From Candidatus Nealsonbacteria bacterium (GTDB lineage Bacteria; Patescibacteriota; Minisyncoccia; Minisyncoccales; MHMH01), in contig JACPGX010000001.1 in NCBI GenBank assembly GCA_016188865.1, positions 77,197 to 141,196 of the forward strand: DNA of 64,000 nt, given 5' to 3'. A program made the position numbers and the translations under genes. Under the pieces are notes generated by a model. That model saw only the letters and a list, made by a program, of their open reading frames with translations. It did not search any database and was not told where the DNA came from. Below, in pieces: positions 8,786-31,205 of this stretch. Position 1 is the stretch's first letter. Each line of letters begins with the position of its first letter.

Positions 8786-8816
8786 ATTTAATTATTTTAC
8801 ATGACTTCTCCCAACT

Positions 8817-8854
8817 CGCCAAGTCTTGACAAAAATACGATTTAGGTGTATTAT
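8817..8854 (+). promoter_or_regulatory. sigma70-type promoter, cassette 1
   Basis: TTGACA 8826-8831, 17-nt spacer, TATTAT 8849-8854. The block CGCCAAGTCTTGACAAAA is repeated at 9383-9400. Confidence 0.65.
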
Positions 8855-8885
8855 TAAAATATAAATAAATAAGGAAAGGGAGGAA

Positions 8886-9176
8886 ATGGGATTGAAAAGG
8901 GACTTTAGTGTAAAGTATGGTAATAGAGAGATTAAAAACCCAGTACTCCGAGGCGCCGTTGTCAGCGGAGCCATAGTCTTCGGAGGAGTTATGGTAATCG
9001 CGCTTATCCCCCTGGTGGTCATTTTAGCAATAGTTCTTTCTCCTATTATGCTCCCCCTTCACTTCATCTTAAAGGCGATGGGGAGAAAGGGATGCTACAG
9101 AAGAACCGAAACAGAAACCGAGTGCAAGATCGAGGTCACTATAGACAGGGAGTCATTCAGTAAAATGGCTCCCTGA
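8886..9176 (+). CDS. hypothetical small membrane protein (96 aa)
   Basis: GGGAGG upstream of the ATG. The central ~45 aa are hydrophobic (two predicted helices). Own promoter and terminator. Confidence 0.5.
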   Translation: MGLKRDFSVKYGNREIKNPVLRGAVVSGAIVFGGVMVIALIPLVVILAIVLSPIMLPLHFILKAMGRKGCYRRTETETECKIEVTIDRESFSKMAP

Positions 9177-9207
9177 GGAGACGATGCGTCAGGAGTGAAT
9201 GTCCAAA

Positions 9208-9241
9208 AGAAAACCCTTGAGATAGCATCAAAGGGGTTTTT
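9208..9241 (+). terminator. intrinsic terminator, cassette 1
   Basis: AAAACCCTTGA ... TCAAAGGGGTTTTT. Homologous to the terminator at 10068-10101. Confidence 0.7.
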
Positions 9242-9274
9242 ATATTGAGTTAAAAAACTAAACTCTGCAAAATA

Positions 9275-9293
9275 TTAAACACCGAGTGTTTAA
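9275..9293. repeat. palindrome TTAAACACCGAGTGTTTAA
   Basis: Related to the inner 13-mer (AACACC-C-GGTGTT) of the nested-hairpin element at 4628-4640. Confidence 0.6.
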
Positions 9294-9327
9294 CATTTGC
9301 TCTATATTTTGAAAATTTTGTATTAAT

Positions 9328-9356
9328 AATAGGGCGAGAACCGTTCTCGCCCTATT
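9328..9356. repeat. REP family 1 copy
   Basis: AATAGGGCGAGAACCGTTCTCGCCCTATT is a 29-nt palindrome around the GAGAACCGTTCTC core. Confidence 0.85.
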
Positions 9357-9382
9357 TTCAATTTACACAATTTTTCTCCCCG

Positions 9383-9420
9383 CGCCAAGTCTTGACAAAA
9401 TAAAAAATTGGGTGTAAGAT
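9383..9420 (+). promoter_or_regulatory. sigma70-type promoter, cassette 2
   Basis: TTGACA 9392-9397, 17-nt spacer, TAAGAT 9415-9420. About 55 nt are homologous to the cassette 1 promoter region. Confidence 0.65.
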
Positions 9421-9450
9421 ATTTTATTAGATGGAACATAGGGAGGAACA

Positions 9451-9630
9451 ATGGAACGGAAAGAAGTTAAATGGTCTTGTCATGCATGCGGCGCTAATGG
9501 AATAATCGAGTATACTCCCCCGGGAAACCCTTACCTTGTTGGCCACGAATGTGAGGAAGCTCATTCAAAAATATCGCCTGATTGCAAGAATCACATGCTG
9601 CGGTTTGATCCTGAAGAACTTGCGAAGTAA
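9451..9630 (+). CDS. hypothetical 59-aa Cys/His-rich protein (below the ORF-track cutoff)
   Basis: My translation: MERKEVKWSCHACGANGIIEYTPPGNPYLVGHECEEAHSKISPDCKNHMLRFDPEELAK. GGGAGG lies 4 nt before the ATG. Contains CxxC plus HxC and C. Confidence 0.5.
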   Translation: MERKEVKWSCHACGANGIIEYTPPGNPYLVGHECEEAHSKISPDCKNHMLRFDPEELAK

Positions 9631-9653
9631 GGGAGGTAAAGGAGGAGAAAACT

Positions 9654-9884
9654 ATGTCTAATGATGGAAAGATTTGGTGTATTTGCCAGAGATGCTCTTC
9701 CGAACTCTTAGGCATCCCGGACACTTCTTGCCCGGGGTGCGAGAAAGGAACCCTCGAGAAACACTGGCCGGAACACGTGAGTATTGAGGACGAGTATCCT
9801 AATGGAACGCACGTCCTAGTAATCCGTAAATCTCGCGGACCGATCAGTGGACATTACTGTACCGTACACAGGATAAAAGAATAG
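9654..9884 (+). CDS. hypothetical 76-aa zinc-ribbon-like protein
   Basis: AAGGAGGAG ribosome-binding site 6 nt upstream. CxCxxC ... CxxC cysteine pattern. GC visibly above flanking genes. Confidence 0.55.
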   Translation: MSNDGKIWCICQRCSSELLGIPDTSCPGCEKGTLEKHWPEHVSIEDEYPNGTHVLVIRKSRGPISGHYCTVHRIKE

Positions 9885-10085
9885 ATGGAAAAAATTATGT
9901 TGACCCCGGGAAGCATGGGGGTTGCTAAACACGCCATTGACCTTTTTGGCATAGAAAGGGTCGAGGTCGGCGCATGGCTGAATCCCGTACGGGTAAATGA
10001 TCTTTCAGAAGATGAAATCAAGTTTGCCGAAGAGTTCTTTCGGGAATATGGCATCGCAGTCACAAAAGAAAACCCCTCGAGATAA
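9885..10085 (+). CDS. hypothetical 66-aa protein
   Basis: The ATG directly abuts the upstream stop (TAGATG). The stop codon lies inside the terminator stem. Confidence 0.5.
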   Translation: MEKIMLTPGSMGVAKHAIDLFGIERVEVGAWLNPVRVNDLSEDEIKFAEEFFREYGIAVTKENPSR

Positions 10086-10101
10086 TATCAAGAGGGGTTT
10101 T
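10068..10101 (+). terminator. intrinsic terminator, cassette 2
   Basis: AAAACCCCTC ... GAGGGGTTTT followed by AT-rich sequence. Confidence 0.7.
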
Positions 10102-10112
10102 ATATTTAATAA

Positions 10113-10143
10113 AAATAGGTCGAGAACCGTTCTCGACCTATTT
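10113..10143. repeat. REP family 1 copy, 3' flank of the RAYT-like gene
   Basis: AAATAGGTCGAGAACCGTTCTCGACCTATTT is a 31-nt palindrome, 3 nt from the stop codon at 10146. Confidence 0.85.
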
Positions 10144-10145
10144 TC

Positions 10146-14732: not shown

Positions 14733-14767
14733 AATAACGCAATCAATAATTGCCAGCTAATTTGTAG
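14733..14767 (-). other. 3' strand of the 23S processing stem
   Basis: AATAACGCAATCAATAATTGCCAGCTAATTTGTAG is complementary, with a few mismatches, to 19210-19242. Confidence 0.7.
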
Positions 14768-15029
14768 ATAAAAAGCTTTACCTATTAGTACTCCTCGGCT
14801 TAACCCATTGCTGGGCTTACACCTAGAGCCTATCAACCCTGTCATCTACAGGGGGTTAATGAATCCTAATCTTGGGGTGGGCTTCGAGCTTAGATGCTTT
14901 CAGCTCTTATCCCTTCCCGACTTAGCTACCCAGCAATGCTCCTGGCGGAACAGCTGGTACACCAGAGGTCAGTTCCTCGAGGTCCTCTCGTACTGTCGAG
15001 GACTCCCCTCAAGATTCGACGCCTGCGGT

Positions 15030-15060
<31 letters not shown>

Positions 15061-15141
15061 GAACCCAGCTCACGTACCTCTTTAACATCGAGGTGCCGAA
15101 CAGGGCCGTTGATATGGACTCGCGGGCCCTACTAGCCTGTT

Positions 15142-16024
15142 CATAGTTAATTTTAGTTAACCATAGACTATATCTTCACCCGCCTAAATATAAATTTTTG
15201 GCGGGGGCGGCGTATGAACTAAATTTTAATTTTAGTTCTCACCCATTTAAGGGATCAGTCGTTACGGGGTCAAGAAGAAATTTTATAATTAAATGTTGGC
15301 AGAATAAATGATCGTATTGTTTGGTGCAACTTAATGGTTTCTTTTGGCGAAAAATAAAGAGCGAATCCTTTTTGTTTTTTATCTAATATTCTGCACAAAA
15401 CATGAAAATTATTTTCAATTGCTGTTTTGGCAATTTCGGCCTCTTTTTCTTGAACTCTCCCTAAATATAGATAGCTTACTTTATCGCGATGATAATAATA
15501 GCCATCATCCATATACCAAACGGCTAAAGCTAAAGAATCTTTTAAGAGATTGCTAAGCTGTTCTGGTATGCGTTTTTTTCCTTCTTTGTAAAATATTGCT
15601 CGCCATTTTCCCAATTCCGGAGTGGAATTGGACTGGTGGCGCCAATATTTATATAACTTGCCGCTTATGGGATGTTTTCGTTCAAGATATTTTGGCTCGC
15701 CTTGGAATAATTTTGGAAATTTGTTTATTTTCCAGAAAAGATAATCTTTTTGATTATCGCCATGTTCAAAACGCAAACGTGAATTTTTCTCTCCAGTTTT
15801 CTGCAAATAAGCATCTCCCAAAATTGTTCCTATAAGAATTGATTTTTGCTCTCTATTAAACTTCACAAATTTTTCTTCTGACTTCCCACGGTGTTGAAAG
15901 AACTCAAAACCTTTTTGTCAAAGGAAGACCAGTTCTTGTTTCACCGTTATAAGCCACTTTAAACTATATCTTATTACTAAGACATAGAGACAACAACCTC
16001 TGTGATTATTATATCACGAGGTTC
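15142..16024 (-). mobile_element. group I intron at 23S position equivalent to E. coli 2449
   Basis: The exons read CCGGGGAU | AACAGGCU. The 5' exon ends in U and the intron ends in G. Core elements include GAAGAUAUAGUC (S-like). Contains a homing endonuclease ORF. Confidence 0.8.
15270..15866 (-). CDS. LAGLIDADG homing endonuclease, two-motif (monomeric type)
   Basis: Motifs LIGTILGDAYL and LAVWYMDDGYY. GTG start. Intron-encoded. Confidence 0.85.
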   Translation of the reverse strand: MKFNREQKSILIGTILGDAYLQKTGEKNSRLRFEHGDNQKDYLFWKINKFPKLFQGEPKYLERKHPISGKLYKYWRHQSNSTPELGKWRAIFYKEGKKRIPEQLSNLLKDSLALAVWYMDDGYYYHRDKVSYLYLGRVQEKEAEIAKTAIENNFHVLCRILDKKQKGFALYFSPKETIKLHQTIRSFILPTFNYKISS

Positions 16025-16532
16025 ATCCCCGGGGTAACTTTTGGTTGATGATCTTCTGCGGTTCTACGAACCACAGTCGGTTCACTAAGTTCGAGTTTCC
16101 TCTCTGCGCGGCATATCCGCCTTGCAGTCAAGCCGGCTTGCGCCTTTACGCTATCAGTCCGATTTCCATCCGGACCTAGCCGACCTTATAAACTTCTCCG
16201 TTACTTTTTAGGAGAAAAGCGCCCCACTTAAACTGCCCACCAGACACTGTCTCCCCTTGCGGGGGTTAGGATGATGGATTCAAAAGACGGGTGTTTCATT
16301 GTTGGCTCCATGCCTCCCGAAAGAAGCACTTCAAAGCCTACCCGCTACACTACGCATTCAAAACCAAAATTCAATATCTAGCTACAGTAAAGCTCCCGGG
16401 GTCTTTCCGTCTAGCCGCAGGTAACCGGCATCTTTACCGGTATTGCATTTTCACCGGGCAACTCCTGGAGACAGTTCCCAAGTCGTTAAACCTTTCATGC
16501 GGGCCAGAACTTACCTGGCAAGGGGTTACGCT

Positions 16533-17249
16533 CAATCTGTTATATCCACAATACATTTGTGGAATTCTTTATGTCGCCATAAAGTTCGGACTATATCTTC
16601 CCGCCCAAATATTCAATTTTCGGCGGGTTCGGCGTATAGTCTCTGAGGATTCTTTAATTTATCGGAATTTTCTATTATTCATCTCTCTCACCATCAATCT
16701 TATTTTAGCCAATCCTTCCTCTCGGAGATGTCTTCCTTTTCCCATCATTTTTACAATTTTAGTAAAAATATGGAAATCTTTTTTCTTGGCAGATAATAAT
16801 TGATATTTTTCGAAAAATGGAATAATTTTCGTGAGTAAATCTACACGATTACGTACTACGTATTTTAGAAGATGTTCGTGATGGTTATCGTGTCTTTTAT
16901 TCAGATAGATTGCTCCGCAATTAAAGAAATTTTTAATTTTCTCTATTGCGGCTTTACTTTTCATTTCTTGCGTAATTACAAACTCTGGAAATACTTGCCA
17001 TTTTAGGCGCAATCTTGATTTGGGATGTTTAAAGAAACTTACAGTAAAACATCCTTCTCCATCAACAAACCCAACTATCCATCCAATAAATTTAAGCCTT
17101 TCCTGCTGATTGTCTGCACCGGATGATTTTTTACTTAACATAATGGATGGTAAGGTATATTACTACCTTACTCTATTATATCAAAGTAGCACCGGATACA
17201 CCAGATTTTCCAGCATATAGCCGAATTTTACTAAAGCAGTGCGTTATCT
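16533..17249 (-). mobile_element. group I intron at 23S position equivalent to E. coli 1931
   Basis: The exons read ...UAACUAUAACUGUGUUAAAGU | AGCGUAACCCCUUGCC. The intron ends in G. Core elements are CAGAGACUAUACGCC (R-like) and GGGAAGAUAUAGUCCGAAC (S). Confidence 0.8.
16659..17141 (-). CDS. LAGLIDADG homing endonuclease, single-motif (homodimer type)
   Basis: Motif WIVGFVDGEGCF. 160 aa. Intron-encoded. Confidence 0.85.
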   Translation of the reverse strand: MLSKKSSGADNQQERLKFIGWIVGFVDGEGCFTVSFFKHPKSRLRLKWQVFPEFVITQEMKSKAAIEKIKNFFNCGAIYLNKRHDNHHEHLLKYVVRNRVDLLTKIIPFFEKYQLLSAKKKDFHIFTKIVKMMGKGRHLREEGLAKIRLMVREMNNRKFR

Positions 17250-19209
17250 ACTTTAACACAGTTATAGTTACTGCGGACGTTCACTGGCGCTTAGGACGCT
17301 CAGCTCACACCTTGCGGCATGAACCGGCATCTTTAACGTTCCAGCACTGGTCAGGTTTCGGCCCCTATACATCCTCTTGCGAGTTGAGCAGGGACCTGTG
17401 TTTTTGATAAACAGTCGCTTGGGATACTTTTGTTGCAGCCTCAAATCCTTGCGGACTGAGGCAGGCCTTATCGCGAACTTACGGCCACTTTTTTGCCGAG
17501 TTCCTTCAGGAGCTTTCACCCGTTCACCTTGGCGCATTTACGCCTGCCTACCTGTGTCGGTTTGCGGTACGGAACCAGTTAAATAGTATACTTAAAACTT
17601 TTCTTGGCAATCTTATTTTTAAGACTTCCGCTTGCGCGGAATAAAAATCCAATAATTTTCTCAAAAATTTTGACTGCGTCATCTTAAGATTATTTAACCG
17701 GTGGGCCGGAATATTAACCGGCTATCCATCTCTCGCTACCATTGGTAACAAAATTAGGACCGCCTAACCCTTGGCTGAATGTCATTGCCAAGGAAACCTC
17801 AGGCTTACGGTGTCCCGCGCTTTCAGCGGGATTGTGGTTACTCAAGCCAATATTCTCACTTCATAACGCTCCATGGTTGGTCACCCTTCCACTTCACAGC
17901 ATTATGAACGCTCCCCTACCCCGAGCATTCAATAAATTGAATACTCAGTCTTATCTTCGGTGCTGAGCTTAGTCCCGTATATCTTCGACGCGGGATCCCT
18001 TAGTTAGTAAGCTATTACGCACTTTTTAAAGGATAGCTGCTTCTAAGCTAACCTCCTAACTATCAAAGGAACCCCACTTCCTTGTAAACACTTAGCTCAT
18101 CTTAGGGACCTTAGATTAAGATCTGGGCTGTTTCCCTCATGACCTCGAAGCTTAGCCCTCGAAGTCTTACTATCCGCCTAAATTTTCTGGCATTCGGAGT
18201 TTAGTAGGAATACCTGGAGAAACTCCAAGATATTCCTTCTAGTGCTCTACCTCCAAAAAATAATGATGGCGGACGCTAGCCCTAAAGCTATTTCGGGGAG
18301 AACCAGCTATTACCAAGCTCGTTTAGGTTTTCTCTTCTTACCACAACTCATCCAAGAGTATTGCACGGCTCACTGGTTCGGACCTCCCCTCGCATTTCTG
18401 CGAAGTTCATCCTGGTTATGGTAAGCTCGCTTGGCTTCGGGTCTTACGCGCGCTCCTAATCGGGCTATTAACCCTTGCTTTCACTTTGCCTTCCTCCGTT
18501 TAACGGAGTTAGACTTGGAGCACACATAAACTCGTTGGCTCGTTCTGCAAAAAGCACGACGTCACCCTAAACCCTTGCGGGTCGCGGGCTCCGTCTCGTT
18601 GTGGGTAAAACGGTTTCAGGTTCTATTTCACCGCCCTTAACGGGCTACTTTTCACCTTTCCCTCACGGTACTGGTTCACTATCGGAGATATCGTAGTATT
18701 TAGCCTTGGCCGAGTAGTTCGGCCGGATTCCTTCAAAGCTTTCGTGCTTCGAAGTACTTAAGAAAAGTATCAAGGAGCATAAAGCCGTTTTCGCTTACGG
18801 GACTATTACCCTCTATGGTTGTCCTTTCCAGGAACATTCAACTAACGAAGCTTCACCTAAATGTTCTCCCTCCGGATTGCTCCGGACAATACTCCCTTGC
18901 AACACCACTCAATGCTTCTTGCGAAGCATAAAATGGTTTAGGCTGTTGCCCTTTCGCTCGCCGCTACTAAGGCAATAAAATTATTTTTCTTTTCCTCTGG
19001 GTACTATGATGTTTCGCTTCCCCAGGTTCGCCCCAGATACAATACTGCATCTGGCGGCCGAGTTTTAGCTCGGCCCTGTTTCCAGATTCGGAAATTCCCG
19101 GATCAAAGGTTGAGAGTCACCTCCCCGAGACTTATCGCAGACTCCCCACGTCCTTCATCGCCTCGATATCCCAAGGCATCCACCGTTTACCCTTAAATGC
19201 AATTTTTAC

Positions 19210-19242
19210 CTACATTAGCTAGCAATTAATAATTGCGTTATT
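19210..19242 (-). other. 5' strand of the 23S processing stem
   Basis: CTACATTAGCTAGCAATTAATAATTGCGTTATT pairs with 14733-14767. Confidence 0.7.
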
Positions 19243-26302: not shown

Positions 26303-27454
26303 TCAAATCTTAAAATATTTTAACAGGCACTTTTGAAATTTTCCCAAGTTTTTATTTTTAATGCGGAAGCCGGCTGCTTGCGGATGCCCTCCGTATGTTT
26401 CAAGATATTTTGAGCAATAAATCATGGGTTTTACCCCGTCAATACCCTTAGGGGTTCTGACAGCTCCTTGAGAGTCATTTTTTCTCTGGCTATATAAAAA
26501 AGTTGGTTTTTTATAAGTGTTGCATATTCGGGAAGCGGCGGGAGCGGCTATTAAAATAGGCCAATCTTTATCTCCCTCAAAAATAATCGGCTCTTCTATT
26601 TTCTTTAGAGCTCTCTTTTCAACCTCCTCCGTTGCTACTTTAATCCTTTGCTGGCGGATATAAGATTTCTCTGAAAGTTCGACTGCCAAAGATTCTGCTC
26701 CTTCTAACGAAGGCGAAGTTAGAAGAAAATATGCTTCATTAATATGCTCTTTCGTTTCACCGGCATGGCAAGCAGAAATTATCTTTTGCGCCATAGGTCG
26801 AGAACCGTTCTCGCCCTCTTTTGCGAAGACTTGGAGGCCGGGACGGAAGGTACTTTTTAAAGAAGCTAATCCTTCGGTTATAATTTTTATATTATCTTCT
26901 TCCTCTATCATCATATCGGCTATGGTAGCTAAAGCTGCCAGCTCTAAAAAATTACCTCTCAAGGCTGGGGTCATTTTTTTATCCAAAAGAGCTTCGGATA
27001 ATTTAAAAACAACTCCGGCTGCGGCAAATTCCTTGAAAGGATACTTATCTCCTTTTTGTTTCGGATTTACTATAATTTTTGCATCTGGCAGTTTATTTAA
27101 AACCTTATGGTGGTCAACAACCATCACTTCAAAACCAAGTTTTTTGGCTAATTTTATTTCCTTAAAATTTCCTATACCCAAATCTACGGTAATGAATAAA
27201 GCCGGAGAATATTTTTTCAAATAATTTAAAGCGTCTTCATTCACGCCGTAGCCTTCTGTCTCCCTATCCGGAAAATATATTGCCGATACCTTGCCGCCAA
27301 GATTGATAATGGCTTCTTTTAAAATAATAACCGAACTAACGCCGTCCATGTCGGCGTCTCCATAGAGAATAATTCTCTCTTTTTTCTTTATGGCTTTTTT
27401 TATCCTCTCTGCCGCTTTTTTTAGATTTTTGATTTGGGACTTGACAGATTTCAT
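26303..27454 (-). CDS. DHH-family phosphoesterase, RecJ-like (short)
   Basis: GDADMDGVSS, DRETEGYG, VVDHH and GGHPQAAG motifs. Confidence 0.75.
   Translation of the reverse strand: MKSVKSQIKNLKKAAERIKKAIKKKERIILYGDADMDGVSSVIILKEAIINLGGKVSAIYFPDRETEGYGVNEDALNYLKKYSPALFITVDLGIGNFKEIKLAKKLGFEVMVVDHHKVLNKLPDAKIIVNPKQKGDKYPFKEFAAAGVVFKLSEALLDKKMTPALRGNFLELAALATIADMMIEEEDNIKIITEGLASLKSTFRPGLQVFAKEGENGSRPMAQKIISACHAGETKEHINEAYFLLTSPSLEGAESLAVELSEKSYIRQQRIKVATEEVEKRALKKIEEPIIFEGDKDWPILIAAPAASRICNTYKKPTFLYSQRKNDSQGAVRTPKGIDGVKPMIYCSKYLETYGGHPQAAGFRIKNKNLGKFQKCLLKYFKI
26794..26817. repeat. REP family 1 copy inside the RecJ-like CDS
   Basis: ATAGGTCGAGAACCGTTCTCGCCC, translated in frame as EGENGSRPM. 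Confidence 0.8.
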
Positions 27455-27468
27455 AGATATGCTATACT
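27440..27468 (+). promoter_or_regulatory. consensus extended -10 promoter of ncRNA-1
   Basis: CTTGACAGATTTCATAGATATGCTATACT: TTGACA 27441-46, 16-nt spacer, TGc TATACT 27463-68. Identical 29-mer at 28140-28168. Overlaps the first codons of the RecJ-like gene on the other strand. Confidence 0.75.
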
Positions 27469-27474
27469 TATAAT

Positions 27475-27609
27475 TGTTGGGGGCGGGCTAGGTTTATCAG
27501 ACCCGGTCACGAGAAGCGCCTCGCAACGTTAATTTGAGCCGGGGGAGATGCCTTCTCCTACCGGCCGCGAGATTCAAGGTGCAACCCAAACGGGAAGCGC
27601 CTTTTTTTA
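27475..27609 (+). ncRNA. unclassified structured RNA, paralog 1 (~135 nt)
   Basis: No plus-strand CDS follows the promoter. P1 pairs 27476-84 with 27518-27. Hairpin at 27539-64. Conserved ATTCAAGGTGCAAC at 27572-85. T7 run at 27602-08. Confidence 0.6.
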
Positions 27610-27870
27610 TCTATAAATATCTTTTCTGTGACCTATTCCAATTAATTTAATTTTGTCTGGATTTAAAAAATGAAATATCGCCCGCCAGTCACGCGTAATT
27701 CTAAAAGAATAAAAACCAGCCAAGGGGCCGGTAAGTGATTTAGTGCGAAGTTTGGAGTGGAAGGGATTATGCTGAAGAATCTCTAAGAGTTTACTAAGTT
27801 TATTTTGTTGCTCTTTTGGCAGTTTTCCAGAAGATTTTAAAAAAGAATCGGTATAAACAATGGAAATCAT
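27607..27870 (-). CDS. RelE/ParE-family type II toxin
   Basis: 87 aa, with FRITRDWRAIF and a C-terminal GHRKDIY. Starts 4 nt after the upstream small gene. Confidence 0.75.
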   Translation of the reverse strand: MISIVYTDSFLKSSGKLPKEQQNKLSKLLEILQHNPFHSKLRTKSLTGPLAGFYSFRITRDWRAIFHFLNPDKIKLIGIGHRKDIYR

Positions 27871-27873
27871 AAT

Positions 27874-28089
27874 TTATTTTCTTTGAAGTTCGGAAAGAAA
27901 ATGCCTTGCGCCCCTAAAGACGAACCTCTCTTTTTCTCTGGCTGATTTAAGAATTTTTTTAACAAATTCTTGACGGTAGTTTCCTTCTTTATCTTTTCCG
28001 GTTATTCCAATCACAAAAGAACGAAGAAGATTAATTTCTTCCTGCAATTTACTGATACTTATATTTTTATCATTTATAGCAGTAGCCAT
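27874..28089 (-). CDS. putative antitoxin (71 aa)
   Basis: A small gene immediately upstream of the RelE-like toxin with a 3-nt gap. No family recognised. Confidence 0.55.
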   Translation of the reverse strand: MATAINDKNISISKLQEEINLLRSFVIGITGKDKEGNYRQEFVKKILKSAREKERFVFRGARHFLSELQRK

Positions 28090-28139
28090 ATTTTTTTATA
28101 ATATCAAAACTTATAAAGTATGTCAAAATTTCTAAGGAC

Positions 28140-28168
28140 CTTGACAGATTTCATAGATATGCTATACT
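28140..28168 (+). promoter_or_regulatory. consensus extended -10 promoter of ncRNA-2
   Basis: The same 29-mer as 27440-27468: TTGACA 28141-46 and TATACT 28163-68. Confidence 0.75.
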
Positions 28169-28174
28169 ATTAAA

Positions 28175-28375
28175 TGTTGGCGGGTGGCTCGGTATGCTCT
28201 GTTGCCTCCCGGCGGGAACGCTAAATGTCGGCCGACGCGTGTCGCGTATCCGGCTCGGTGGCCTGTTGAGCCAGCCAACGTTTATGAGTCCGAAGGAGGT
28301 CCCATGTGGTTGGTCCTCCTCCGGCGCAAAATTCAAGGTGCAACACACAACTTCGTGTTGCCCTTTTATTTTTAT
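28175..28375 (+). ncRNA. unclassified structured RNA, paralog 2 (~200 nt)
   Basis: P1 pairs 28176-81 and 28185-90 with 28268-79. Hairpin at 28290-324. Conserved ATTCAAGGTGCAAC at 28331-44. Terminator GCAACAC-n8-GTGTTGC plus a T-run, overlapping the pgk stop codon. Confidence 0.6.
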
Positions 28376-29370
28376 TCCAAAACTTTGATGCCCGACAGTT
28401 CTTTACCGCTTAAAAATTCCAGCATGGCGCCTCCGCCGGTGGATAAATAGCTGAACTTATCGCCAAGGCCGAGCTGATTAACGAATTCTACCGTCTCTCC
28501 TCCCCCAATTATAGAATATGCGCCAGAATCAATAATTGCTTTAGCCAATTCTTCCGTTCCGACAGAAAATTCTTTTTCCTCTATTTTACCTAAGGGACCA
28601 TTCCAAAAAACAGTTTTTGCTCGTAAAATTTCTCCTCTGAAAAGTTTGATGGTTTCCGACCCGACGTCTTTGCCGCCGCCCACCTCATCAACTGGGCCGA
28701 TTATTTTTTCCGAATATTTAAATTGAATATTTTTATCTTGAATTTCTTTTTGAATAAGTCCTGAAATTAATACAAAATCAGCCACTTCAGAAATTTTATC
28801 TATAACCATGGATTTCTCTTCCACTTTTTTCCCTCCGATAATCGCCACCAACGGCTTTTCCGGGCTATTGCTTAACTTAGTTAAGCAACGCACTTCTTGT
28901 TCGAGCAAAAGGCCGGCGGCAGAAGGTAAAAATTTTGCAATACCGACGATTGAAGTATGAGCTCGGTGAGATGCGCCGAAAGCATCGTTAATATAAATAT
29001 CTCCTAATTTTGCAAGCTCTTTGGCAAAATTTTCATCGTTTTCTTCTTCCTCTTTATGGAATCTTAAATTTTCCAAAAGAACTAATTCTCCATCTGCGGC
29101 AAATGCCACTTTTTTGTTCAATAATTCTTCCAATCTTTTGGCAACTGGCTTCAAGCTGAATTCTTCCATAGTTTTTCCGTCGGGGCGGCCAAGGTGACTC
29201 ATCAAAATTATTTTTTGGGCTCCTTTTTCTATTAAATACTCAATAGTGGGTATGGTTTTCTTAATTCTAAAGTCATCTAAAATTTCCCCGGTTTCGCTTA
29301 GGGGAACATTGAAATCGCAACGGACCAAAATTCGCTTATTGGCAACATTAAAATCTCTTATGGTGCGCAT
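28372..29370 (-). CDS. pgk: phosphoglycerate kinase (shortened, 332 aa)
   Basis: ILVRCDFNVPL, LLENLRFHKEEE, NDAFGASHRAH, FWNGPLG and STGGGA. Confidence 0.9.
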   Translation of the reverse strand: MRTIRDFNVANKRILVRCDFNVPLSETGEILDDFRIKKTIPTIEYLIEKGAQKIILMSHLGRPDGKTMEEFSLKPVAKRLEELLNKKVAFAADGELVLLENLRFHKEEEENDENFAKELAKLGDIYINDAFGASHRAHTSIVGIAKFLPSAAGLLLEQEVRCLTKLSNSPEKPLVAIIGGKKVEEKSMVIDKISEVADFVLISGLIQKEIQDKNIQFKYSEKIIGPVDEVGGGKDVGSETIKLFRGEILRAKTVFWNGPLGKIEEKEFSVGTEELAKAIIDSGAYSIIGGGETVEFVNQLGLGDKFSYLSTGGGAMLEFLSGKELSGIKVLE

Positions 29371-29429: not shown

Positions 29430-31205
29430 TTAAAACTTAACCGTTTCTCCCGGCCCAATGACTCCTTCTTTAGCTTTAGCAGGGGCGGATGGTTTCGCTT
29501 CTTCCAATGCTTGTTTCAACTCTGATAGATTGATTTCCTTTCTTTGGAGCTTTGGACCTTCTTCTCTGCGCCTCGAAGCAGAAAAAGGAACAACCGCGGG
29601 TCTTTCTATTATTTCTGGCGCCTTCGGCCAAGATGGCGCCTCTGCTTTTGACTGTTCAATATCGCTCACCGCAGGTGGTTCGACATGGCTCACCACGGGC
29701 GGTTCAACGCGACTCTCTGCGGCTGGTTCAGAAAACTCCTCTTTTTTTTCTGGCTCAGGAGACGCTGGTTTTTTAGGACCTATACCTAGCTTGGCTCTGC
29801 ACGCCTTGCAATAAACCGGCCTTTTGCCATCGGGTAAAAAAGGCACTTTGGTGTCTTTGCCGCACATTGAACAACGGGCATCGTAAAGCGTAGGCCCGGC
29901 TGAGTTGGGTTGCAAAGTTGCCGGCATTTCTAAGAGGCCGGTCCATTTGGCAATCTTTTCATCTACTTCTTGACGAGGGGTTCCGTATCTCTCTCTGGCA
30001 ACATTAATAATCTTTTCCCTGTTTGATTTTTCCGGCCCGGGAAATGGCGCCAGCGTTCTAGCAGAAAATGGACGGCCGGCAACGCCGTCAATCATTAATT
30101 TTAAATAAATATTGTATTTAGCTAAATTCACTAAATCCGTTGCTAAAAATTCTGGAGTAAATTCTTTTTCGAGCCATTCGGCGTCTTCTGCCCCTACCCT
30201 GAAAGAAACTATCGTGCCTACGTTTCCAAAAACCGCATCCCTAACTTCTTCTTCCATTTGAGTAATGTATTGATGCCCCAAGATTAAAGCCAATCTGTAT
30301 TTTCTAGCTTCAGAAAGTATGCTGACAAAAGACTCTGTAGCGAAATTTTGAAACTCGTCAATATAGAGGAAAAAATCTTTTCTTTTTTCTTCTGGGATAT
30401 CAACTCTCTGCATGGCAGCTAACTGTAATTTGGTAATCATTAAAGCTCCCAGTAAACGCGAGTTGTCTTCGCCGATTCTGCCCTTAGAAAGATCCATTAT
30501 CAAAATCTTTTCTTCATCCATAATTTTTCTCATATCGATTGATGATTTGACCTGGCCAATGATATTCCTGATTATTGGAGCTGAAACAAATTGTCCTACC
30601 TTATTTTGAATGGCAGCTGTGGCCTCTACCTCATATCTCTGGGTATATCTCGAATACTCTTGCACCCAAAAAGCCTTGATAACTGGATCGGTGACTCTCT
30701 CAACTACTTTTTTGCGGTATTCAACGTCAGACAACATTCTGTTAACTCCCAAAAGAGTCGCATCAGGATACTCCAACAAAGCCAAAATGCAATTATTCAA
30801 AATATACTCCATGCGGGCAGACCAGACATCCGGCCAAATTTTCTTGAAAACGCCCATAAGCCCGCCTGCCACCAAATGCCTGTGGCTGACATCCACTTTT
30901 TCCATAATATTAAAAGAAATGGGATATTCTAAATCAGCCGGATTGAAATAAATTACGTCATTAATCCTATTTGCCGGAATAAAATCCAATAACTCTTCGG
31001 CAGCTTCTCCGTGAGGATCAACAAATCCTATGCCATGGCCATTTTGAATATCTTGAATCGCCATATTTTTTATCATGACGGTTTTGCCCATGCCTGTTTT
31101 CCCAATAACATAAAAGTGCCGACGCCTGTCGTCGATCTTTATGCCAAACTTCCTGTTGGCATTTCGATAAGTTGTTTCAGCAAAAAAATTAATTTCACCA
31201 GCCAT
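29430..31205 (-). CDS. T4SS coupling-protein-like (VirD4/TraD/TraG-type) P-loop ATPase with a C-terminal zinc ribbon and a repeat tail
   Basis: Walker A GKTGMGKT, Walker B-like FFLYIDEFQNF, and ARKYRLALILGHQY. CSMCGK...CKAC ribbon. Tandem VEPPVVSH/VEPPAVSD. No N-terminal TM segment. Confidence 0.6.
   Translation of the reverse strand: MAGEINFFAETTYRNANRKFGIKIDDRRRHFYVIGKTGMGKTVMIKNMAIQDIQNGHGIGFVDPHGEAAEELLDFIPANRINDVIYFNPADLEYPISFNIMEKVDVSHRHLVAGGLMGVFKKIWPDVWSARMEYILNNCILALLEYPDATLLGVNRMLSDVEYRKKVVERVTDPVIKAFWVQEYSRYTQRYEVEATAAIQNKVGQFVSAPIIRNIIGQVKSSIDMRKIMDEEKILIMDLSKGRIGEDNSRLLGALMITKLQLAAMQRVDIPEEKRKDFFLYIDEFQNFATESFVSILSEARKYRLALILGHQYITQMEEEVRDAVFGNVGTIVSFRVGAEDAEWLEKEFTPEFLATDLVNLAKYNIYLKLMIDGVAGRPFSARTLAPFPGPEKSNREKIINVARERYGTPRQEVDEKIAKWTGLLEMPATLQPNSAGPTLYDARCSMCGKDTKVPFLPDGKRPVYCKACRAKLGIGPKKPASPEPEKKEEFSEPAAESRVEPPVVSHVEPPAVSDIEQSKAEAPSWPKAPEIIERPAVVPFSASRRREEGPKLQRKEINLSELKQALEEAKPSAPAKAKEGVIGPGETVKF

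Follow-up and report, generated by a model that had tools for sequence, protein, structure and literature searches.

Introduction

CopA and RNA I, the plasmid copy-control model of stable stem-loop antisense RNAs that drift with their target, together with cis-antisense or "excludon" units, offer the closest described parallels to two predicted small RNAs (sRNAs), RNA-1 and RNA-2, encoded in a 64-kb stretch (the window) of a 271-kb contig from a Candidatus Nealsonbacteria metagenome-assembled genome (MAG). Like those antisense RNAs, RNA-1 and RNA-2 lie opposite a predicted sense transcript, here the 3' end of the phosphoglycerate kinase gene pgk and the leader of a DHH-family phosphoesterase gene (hereafter DHH), and they likewise combine a strong constitutive promoter, compact stable stem-loops and an intrinsic terminator with free sequence change. 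The parallel is incomplete in that (i) sense transcription across the RNA gene is here a prediction only, (ii) the Nealsonbacteria RNA carries a sequence-conserved 5' GUUGG and a hairpin opening with GCCGGAGG, neither of which antisense pairing needs, and (iii) cis-antisense systems are not known to have tandem paralogs whose domains are unrelated.

Three further groups bear comparison. The CsrB/RsmY/RsmZ and Qrr sRNAs are also sigma-70 units of ~110-200 nt that occur as paralogs within a genome, vary in length and sequence, and end in an intrinsic terminator after an A/U-rich stretch; however, for the Nealsonbacteria RNAs neither a repeated binding motif or conserved seed nor a CsrA- or Hfq-like partner was identified, and all members found occupy one locus. 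As with the 5'-stabilizing hairpin of ompA, a helix (P1) stands at the predicted +1 of nearly every member (one base in for L148), where it would be expected if it guards against decay that depends on the 5' end, but here it encloses a folded domain of 50-115 nt and there is no downstream coding region to stabilize. Finally, the order of P1-closed domain, linker and terminator is that of a riboswitch, yet a conserved aptamer, an antiterminator pairing, a regulated downstream gene and an Rfam match are all lacking.

Members of the Patescibacteria, or candidate phyla radiation (CPR), have tiny genomes, and the Nealsonbacteria among them are tiny symbionts. To our knowledge almost nothing is known of their regulatory RNAs, and our search of the literature on sRNAs of this group found none. 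On present evidence RNA-1 and RNA-2 are members of a previously undescribed sRNA gene family of narrow phylogenetic range and unusual interior turnover. With a clear gene model, covariation support, a fixed genomic address and probably high expression (a prediction from its promoters), this family provides a concrete target for metatranscriptomics, even if its reach is limited by the narrow clade, by dispensability of the RNA in close relatives and by a function that is itself predicted. What sets the family apart is the combination of a conserved scaffold, interior turnover among close relatives and an antisense wedge in a glycolysis-gene operon junction.

RNA-1 and RNA-2 as tandem small RNA genes

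The initial annotation of the window proposed two paralogous, independently transcribed structured RNAs forming a functional family, a proposal now strengthened by homologs in related Nealsonbacteria and by compensatory changes in P1. Judged from sequence, RNA-1 and RNA-2 are real, separately transcribed small structured RNA genes and tandem paralogs (Table 1): each has its own promoter (11/12 consensus match with TG) and terminator, and coding potential is not supported. Both window RNAs contain an AUG in frame with AUU-CAA-GGU-GCA, and a small-protein reading was considered on that account and rejected, as they have no ORF or Shine-Dalgarno site in common with L052, L054 or L144; reading of the sequences likewise revealed no conserved open reading frame (ORF) or Shine-Dalgarno site among the members.

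As first reported, the 29-bp repeat CTTGACAGATTTCATAGATATGCTATACT is present twice without a mismatch (27440-27468 and 28140-28168), and no third site was found in the window at up to 3 mismatches, nor any site in shuffles. Both copies read TTGACA, 16 nt, TG-n-TATACT, i.e., an extended -10 promoter matching the consensus at 11/12 positions. The window contains 10 near-consensus promoters of this grade versus 1.8 in dinucleotide shuffles, and one of the 10, of the same class (11/12 with TG) as the RNA promoters, precedes the 23S rRNA; the consensus is therefore meaningful in this organism. Both copies point rightward into sequence that lacks a plus-strand gene, as had been stated, with all flanking genes (DHH, toxin, antitoxin and pgk) on the minus strand.

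Orthologs of promoter 1 occupy the same position in 13 related loci, and across the members the promoter takes the form TTGACA-(G/A)(A/G)TTTCAT...TGC-TATAAT. The -10 box is intact in 11 orthologs, reading TATAAT in 10 and TATAAA in one (L148), whereas both window copies read TATACT, which on this comparison is the derived state. Because the two copies share it, their 29-bp identity would be the outcome of a recent duplication, or of gene conversion, within this genome and not of exceptional constraint.

Elsewhere in the window (8815-10145, plus strand), two adjacent small-gene modules are each opened by the same promoter block, GCCAAGTCTTGACAAAA, and closed by the same terminator pair (AAAACCC..GGGGTTTT and GGNCGAGAACCGTTCTCGNCC), with small ORFs inside, two of them Cys-rich. 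Promoter/terminator modules are therefore reused elsewhere in this genome.

The RNAs have a GC content of 58%, and their bodies are GC islands (61-63% in 100-nt windows versus 40% overall), with a minimum free energy (MFE) of about -54.5 to -54.7 kcal/mol for RNA-1 (z = -2.7 versus shuffles) and about -83.1 to -83.3 kcal/mol for RNA-2 (z = -3.7). Much of the anatomy suggested by the initial annotation appears in both predicted folds, namely a 5' GUUGG paired with an internal CAAC, a linker GUU(A/U)AU..GAG, a CCG..GGAG/CUCC..CGG hairpin, and a terminal hairpin followed by a U-run. Other details had to be revised. (i) The motif AUUCAAGGUGCAAC, described as conserved and single-stranded, is placed by the folds in the terminator stem of both RNAs; ATTCAAGGTGCAAC occurs exactly twice, at 27572 and 28331, and AAGGUGC(AAC) makes up the 5' arm of each terminator hairpin. 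(ii) P1 of RNA-2, drawn as 28176-90 with 28268-79, is reduced to 6 bp, G7-G9 pairing instead inside the domain that P1 closes. (iii) RNA-2 does not carry RNA-1's 52-nt interior plus an insertion of ~75 nt; rather, its P1 encloses a different, multi-helix four-way domain of 104 nt. (iv) The view of one layout with diverged bodies gives way to wholesale replacement of the P1 interior, as seen among near relatives below.

Homologs, covariation and interior turnover

Relatives were sought by three routes: (i) loci encoding DHH relatives in GTDB genomes, (ii) a locus-blind scan of metagenomes for the promoter-plus-GTTGG pattern, and (iii) contigs with DHH homologs whose called N-terminus, MK[SLFA]V[KN], reveals the promoter. 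These yielded 13 distinct metagenomic or MAG loci, making 14 with the window that bear the RNA or a remnant. Members are present in L001, L032, L052, L054, L140, L144, L146 (two in tandem), L147, L148, L149/150, L151/152 and L153, while L145 retains remnants only, the body being deleted between a promoter stub and the terminator. Every family member lies between the DHH start and the end of the convergent pgk gene, and the DHH proteins encoded beside the RNA are ~60-81% identical to that of the window. The metagenome pattern scan gave at least 120 matches, mostly unrelated promoters and ~30 of them manA RNA; among the matches listed, the family is represented by L032, L052 and L054, all three at the pgk/DHH locus. 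When every member was compared by BLAST with the window and with each locus, in search of other copies or targets, only the members themselves matched, and the promoter pattern had no match in a viral contig collection. A descriptor search (GTYGG, P1 of >=7 bp, terminator; 1.16 Mb) proved too permissive, its 155 matches being mostly spurious. The expectation of homologs in other Patescibacteria was thus borne out in related Nealsonbacteria, and among the loci sampled the family is found only in a sub-clade of Candidatus Nealsonbacteria.

Parts shared across the family are the promoter, the GUUGG start, a P1 ending in CCAAC, the A/U-rich linker and the terminator. The GCCGGAGG...CCUCCGGC hairpin after the linker is found in some members only, and the terminator takes the AAGG(U/G)GCAAC form in 7 of the 10 full-length members. 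In each of these 10, P1 forms in the MFE fold and starts at the 5' end or no more than one base from it. Since MAFFT alignment of full-length RNAs mis-registers P1 in 4/10, covariation at its nine positions was counted, with some bias toward pairing, on strands extracted by hand from each fold (9-10 sequences, two bulges removed). Paired cells amounted to 95% versus 82% in shuffles and double-sided changes to 11 versus 3.5, with 0/500 shuffles reaching the observed score; such changes affect 4/9 pairs, and sliding the register drops the paired fraction to 21-49%. Position 6 alone is C-G, G-U, U-A or A-U, and L149 has GUCGG/CCGAC. Within P1, domain types A and B have a common core of P1, P2, AAAAA and P3, and P2 differs between them by compensatory changes (GGA/UCC versus CGA/UCG; GC versus CG, CG versus UA). 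The compensatory changes anticipated for homologs are therefore found in P1 and in the internal P2 of types A/B; the alignment of the 3' module contained no useful covariation, the GCCGGAGG hairpin being conserved as sequence. The plus strand is taken as the folded strand because it folds better than the minus strand in 7/10 members and because the G-U pairs of P1 would be A-C mismatches on the opposite strand, in agreement with promoter and terminator orientation.

The P1-enclosed domain ranges from 52 to ~115 nt and falls into at least 7 unrelated types. Type A is found in L001, L140 and L052/L151, and type B in L144 and L146a. Domain type does not follow the DHH tree, since L001 and L153 have different domains at 89% DHH identity while type A is common to genomes at 58-76% (and type B to two at 68%). 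The window and L146 each carry a tandem RNA pair. Gradual divergence would fit this pattern less well than either exchange through conserved flanks or differential loss from an ancestral array.

The second tandem RNA of L146 (L146:1061-1290, minus strand) lies next to pgk and has its own promoter (TTGACAGTGTCTATTGGTTTTATAAAAT). Its closing helix is reversed in polarity (GCCGAC...GUUGGC), with the order of mid hairpin, AAGG and terminator kept, and it looks like the positional counterpart of RNA-2.

Such turnover might be taken to mean that the locus is a hypervariable cassette, i.e., a fixed promoter/P1/terminator scaffold carrying exchangeable domains that are under diversifying selection and recombined through the conserved flanks; the domains might then serve as an RNA decoy, or as an immunity or recognition determinant, in a host-dependent symbiont. 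The departure of domain type from the DHH tree (type A at 58-76%, the differing 89% pair), the wholesale replacement of interiors between conserved flanks, the repeated landing of toxin-antitoxin (TA) cassettes, which marks a recombination hot spot, and promoter homogenization within one genome would all suit it. The same pattern would nonetheless arise by differential loss from an ancestral tandem array with neither exchange nor diversifying selection, only ~7 domain types are sampled, no associated effector gene was seen, and the viral contig collection was without matches; we therefore regard this explanation as improbable. Were it true, the locus would be the equivalent, at the level of RNA, of variable loci for immunity or recognition, e.g., phage- or host-factor decoys in an obligate symbiont.

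A probable antisense insertion between pgk and DHH

The first five codons of DHH (MKSVK) are the reverse complement of the promoter 1 -35 box and half its spacer; promoter 2 therefore contains a duplicate of the DHH start, and DHH homologs that have the RNA promoter likewise begin with MK[SLFA]V[KN]. In L004-L008, L014, L139 and L141, which comprise more distant and several close relatives, pgk and DHH are separated by 0-15 nt or overlap, as in an operon. L143 and L003 have degenerate promoter relics beside pgk, and L139 has no RNA despite 78% DHH identity. We read the abutting pgk/DHH pair as the older arrangement and, since it occurs in more distant relatives, the RNA gene as a probable antisense insertion that entered the operon junction in a single sub-clade and was subsequently lost on several occasions. 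An insertion at this junction would account for a promoter that overlaps the DHH start codon and a terminator that directly follows the pgk stop. As the DHH ATG lies in the spacer of the RNA promoter, every DHH mRNA has to start upstream of that ATG, within the RNA gene; no convincing minus-strand promoter was seen between the DHH ATG and the RNA. We thus infer that a sense transcript across the RNA gene is demanded by the geometry of the locus.

In three lineages (proteins P0003, P0005 and P0097), a palindromic insertion with duplication of TTGAC splits the -35 box, and the DHH reading frame from the ATG is kept across it, which suggests that this ATG is really used. The element is MITE-like (resembling a miniature inverted-repeat transposable element), is located at L001:187-265 and L151:1990-2170 (identical in L152) with TTGAC duplicated at its flanks, and has G/C-rich inverted ends, e.g., CCCCCCACC...GGTGGGGGG. 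DHH gene calls with the insertion are 411-426 aa.

Our leading, albeit tentative, reading, to which we assign somewhat less than an even chance, is that the family encodes a stable, abundant cis-antisense RNA that, with its convergent promoter, insulates pgk from DHH and lowers DHH expression. The strong RNA promoter would fire against read-through from pgk to DHH, generating a long-lived RNA with perfect complementarity to the 3' end of pgk and the leader of DHH. Promoter and antisense RNA would jointly uncouple DHH expression from pgk and reduce it, while P1 and the terminator would shield the two RNA ends from nucleases and the terminator would serve both directions. Complementarity of a cis-antisense RNA is automatic whatever mutates; the P1 interior would hence be free to be swapped or lost, provided that it still folds.

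Several points weigh against the cis-antisense role. (i) RNA transcription and minus-strand read-through are both predictions. (ii) There is no obvious antisense need for a 5' GUUGG, a GCCGGAGG hairpin and a GC-rich multi-helix domain in every lineage. (iii) The P2 - AAAAA - P3 core shared by types A, B and L148 has the look of a specific fold, as would suit a trans-acting or protein-binding RNA. (iv) Close relatives manage without the RNA (L139, at 78% DHH identity). (v) Most homologs were found via the DHH gene, and the locus-blind scan required this very promoter, leaving room for copies elsewhere. (vi) Hand extraction of P1 strands, with bulges removed, favors pairing in the P1 count.

Nearly as likely, though doubtful in its own right, is a trans-acting RNA in which the 3' module (A/U linker, GCCGGAGG hairpin and terminator) is a protein handle and the P1 domain the effector, acting as a protein sponge, as a ribonucleoprotein component or through base-pairing loops, with the pgk/DHH site a historical accident. 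This would explain why every lineage has retained a structure while the sequence turned over, why the P2 - AAAAA - P3 core of types A, B and L148 covaries, and why conservation of the 5' GUUGG and of the GCCGGAGG hairpin extends to their sequence and is not limited to structure; tandem paralogs are found in many trans-acting sRNA families, and an RNA of like architecture stands beside gap on a separate contig (L068). Yet the A/U-rich linker is the only single-stranded element conserved across all members, wholly different domains in genomes at 89% DHH identity are hard to square with a single conserved partner, loss of the RNA has occurred more than once, and no partner gene was identified.

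The L068 RNA (L068:11375-11525, plus strand) is transcribed divergently from the glyceraldehyde-3-phosphate dehydrogenase (GAPDH) gene gap, another glycolysis neighbor. It follows a consensus promoter with +1 at GUUGGUGAG and consists of three hairpins enclosed by a 9-bp P1, followed by a short linker and then a terminator (z = -4.6; no Rfam match). Unrelated transcripts in L037, L058, L097, L099 and L126, located before ORFs or tRNAs, also have a hairpin of the GUUGG...CCAAC type, >=6 bp long, starting at +1. By a rough estimate, such +1 hairpins occur in 8 of ~70 distinct sequences versus ~2% expected, a figure that is indicative only given that the set was preselected for TGTTGG; it suggests that 5'-terminal GUUGG...CCAAC hairpins are common after consensus promoters.

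Comparison with known RNA families

Behind the cis-antisense and trans-acting readings we place, in descending order of likelihood, the hypervariable cassette, a relic or divergent universal RNA, a riboswitch-like attenuator and a regulator of the TA pair, the last three being disfavored. The failure of the initial annotation to fit either RNA to the signal recognition particle (SRP) RNA, 6S RNA, transfer-messenger RNA (tmRNA), RNase P RNA or a riboswitch was echoed by Rfam 15, which at gathering score recognized only 23S and 5S rRNA in the whole window. At E <=10, the best match in 27400-28420 scored 21 bits versus a gathering score of 56.8, all matches being terminator-like and due to chance, and eleven homolog loci had no match for the RNA region; as a positive control, the same scan recognized manA RNA in unrelated metagenome loci. 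Neither a tRNA nor a tmRNA was detected in the window by ARAGORN. By-eye likenesses to Escherichia coli 4.5S RNA, RNase P CR-I/CR-V and group II intron domain V were set aside, as they had no model support, were too small and involved unconserved motifs.

Could the two units be decaying duplicates of a promoter-terminator unit, or else a far-diverged version of SRP RNA, 6S RNA, RNase P RNA or tmRNA? Loss of the RNA in several relatives, the internal deletion in L145 and the reuse of promoter/terminator modules at 8815-10145 would be in keeping with decay. However, the RNA stays GC-rich and structured across all lineages, in a genome of 40% GC, P1 covaries, and the promoter is kept at consensus in 13 loci; a universal RNA, for its part, would not be absent or hypervariable among close relatives, and no universal RNA of Rfam matched even at E <=10. 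Either version is thus unlikely.

More improbable still is a riboswitch-like attenuator whose P1 domain senses a ligand and whose read-through product would be complementary to pgk in the case of RNA-2 and to the toxin gene in that of RNA-1. The succession of P1-closed domain, linker and terminator is the classic riboswitch order, and [GC]CAAC recurs in the P1 3' strand and the terminator 5' arm. This recurrence is one of resemblance and not of complementarity (CCAAC and GCAAC), which leaves no conventional antiterminator possible. Moreover, the P1 interiors of near relatives are alike in neither sequence nor fold, such that the presumed aptamer is unconserved even there; the next downstream gene is convergent, with no plus-strand gene to regulate; and no Rfam riboswitch matches.

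In L092 (2291-2479) and L060 (3210-3397), manA RNA (RF01745, ~190 bits) begins with GUUGG directly after a consensus promoter. The leading sequence of these two is shared by ~30 marine contigs from the pattern scan and is unrelated to the RNA-1/RNA-2 family.

The toxin-antitoxin pair between the RNAs

The only genes between RNA-1 and RNA-2 were described as an opposite-strand antitoxin and RelE-like toxin, and they indeed encode, on the minus strand, a ParE/RelE-superfamily toxin (YoeB, YafQ and HigB-like models matched below their cutoffs) and a DUF2683-like protein. The accompanying notion of a RelE-type TA context did not survive, nor do homologs always stand beside such genes: a TA pair is present in 2/14 loci (the window and L145), each time between two copies of the RNA or its terminator, and the two cassettes differ (toxins 35% identical over 57 residues, antitoxins unrelated). 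Because of this distribution the pair is, on the loci sampled, incidental to the family and has the look of a secondary insertion that came to lie between the tandem RNAs, and the locus that of a landing site for small cassettes. The RNAs themselves are not parts of a TA system.

The converse proposal, that the RNAs regulate or bound the TA pair or a mobile TA cassette (as antisense or antitoxin RNAs, or as attC-like or MITE-like ends), has very little probability left and is already largely refuted by distribution. It draws on the position of both TA pairs between two RNA or terminator copies and on P1 ends (GTTGG...CCAAC) that loosely recall recombination core sites. Against it, 12/14 loci have the RNA without a TA pair, the two pairs are different cassettes, and the RNA and TA genes overlap by only ~2 nt. 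In a comparison with TA-system RNAs we found no constant toxin link, no hydrophobic small ORF on the opposite strand and no tandem repeats, and a type I toxin was rejected as the strand opposite the RNAs holds no candidate. The box order of attC (RYYYAAC...GTTRRRY) is the opposite of that of P1, the unit has two copies with unrelated interiors and no others in 64 kb, and Pfam detected no integrase among the ten neighboring genes scanned.

Features of the locus and additional observations

Table 1. Predicted features around RNA-1 and RNA-2 (window coordinates)
Feature	Position	Strand	Details
DHH/DHHA1 phosphoesterase (RecJ/NrnA-like)	26303..27454	-	Pfam DHH 6e-19, DHHA1 5e-8
Promoter 1	27441..27468	+	-35 TTGACA 27441-46, 16-nt spacer, TG 27460-61, -10 TATACT 27463-68
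RNA-1	27476..27608	+	~133 nt, 58% GC; U-run to 27608
RNA-1 P1	27476-27485 with 27517-27527	+	One bulged G
RNA-1 inner hairpin	27486-27508	+	Predicted fold
RNA-1 A/U linker	27528-27534	+	Predicted fold
RNA-1 GCCGG..CCGGC hairpin	27535-27567	+	Predicted fold
RNA-1 terminator	27576-27603, then U-run to 27608	+	Predicted fold
ParE/RelE-superfamily toxin, 87 aa	27607..27870	-	Pfam ParE_toxin 4e-5 (24.5 bits, cutoff 23); stop codon overlaps RNA-1 end
Putative antitoxin, 71 aa, DUF2683-like	27874..28089	-	Pfam DUF2683 1e-5, 25.9 bits, below cutoff 27
TA-operon promoter	28098..28126	-	TTGACA, 17 nt, TG-n-TATTAT; back to back with promoter 2
Promoter 2	28141..28168	+	Identical to promoter 1; includes DHH start copy (ATGAAATCTGTCAAG, minus strand)
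RNA-2	28176..28373	+	~198 nt; U-run to 28373 abuts pgk stop codon
RNA-2 P1	28176-28181 with 28274-28279	+	6 bp; closes 4-way-junction domain
RNA-2 linker	28280-28287	+	Predicted fold
RNA-2 CCG-GGAGG..CCUCC-CGG hairpin	28288-28327	+	Predicted fold
RNA-2 terminator	~28335-28365, then U-run to 28373	+	Fold and independent terminator scan
pgk (phosphoglycerate kinase)	28372..29370	-	Pfam PGK 3e-112; convergent with RNA-2, whose terminator directly adjoins pgk stop codon

No 16S rRNA or tRNA gene was found in the 64 kb. The 23S rRNA (14765-19210, minus strand) measures 4446 nt versus 2925 nt for the model, owing to ~1.5 kb of insertions, and contains ORFs of 160-198 aa (15270-15866, 16291-16803 and 16659-17141); we take these insertions with ORFs to be typical CPR rRNA introns or insertions. 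Directly downstream of pgk, positions 29430-31205 (minus strand) encode a 591-aa TrwB/VirD4-like coupling protein with a C-terminal treble-clef zinc finger, which is syntenic in L139, L141 and L143 and is therefore part of the conserved backbone rather than of a mobile element.

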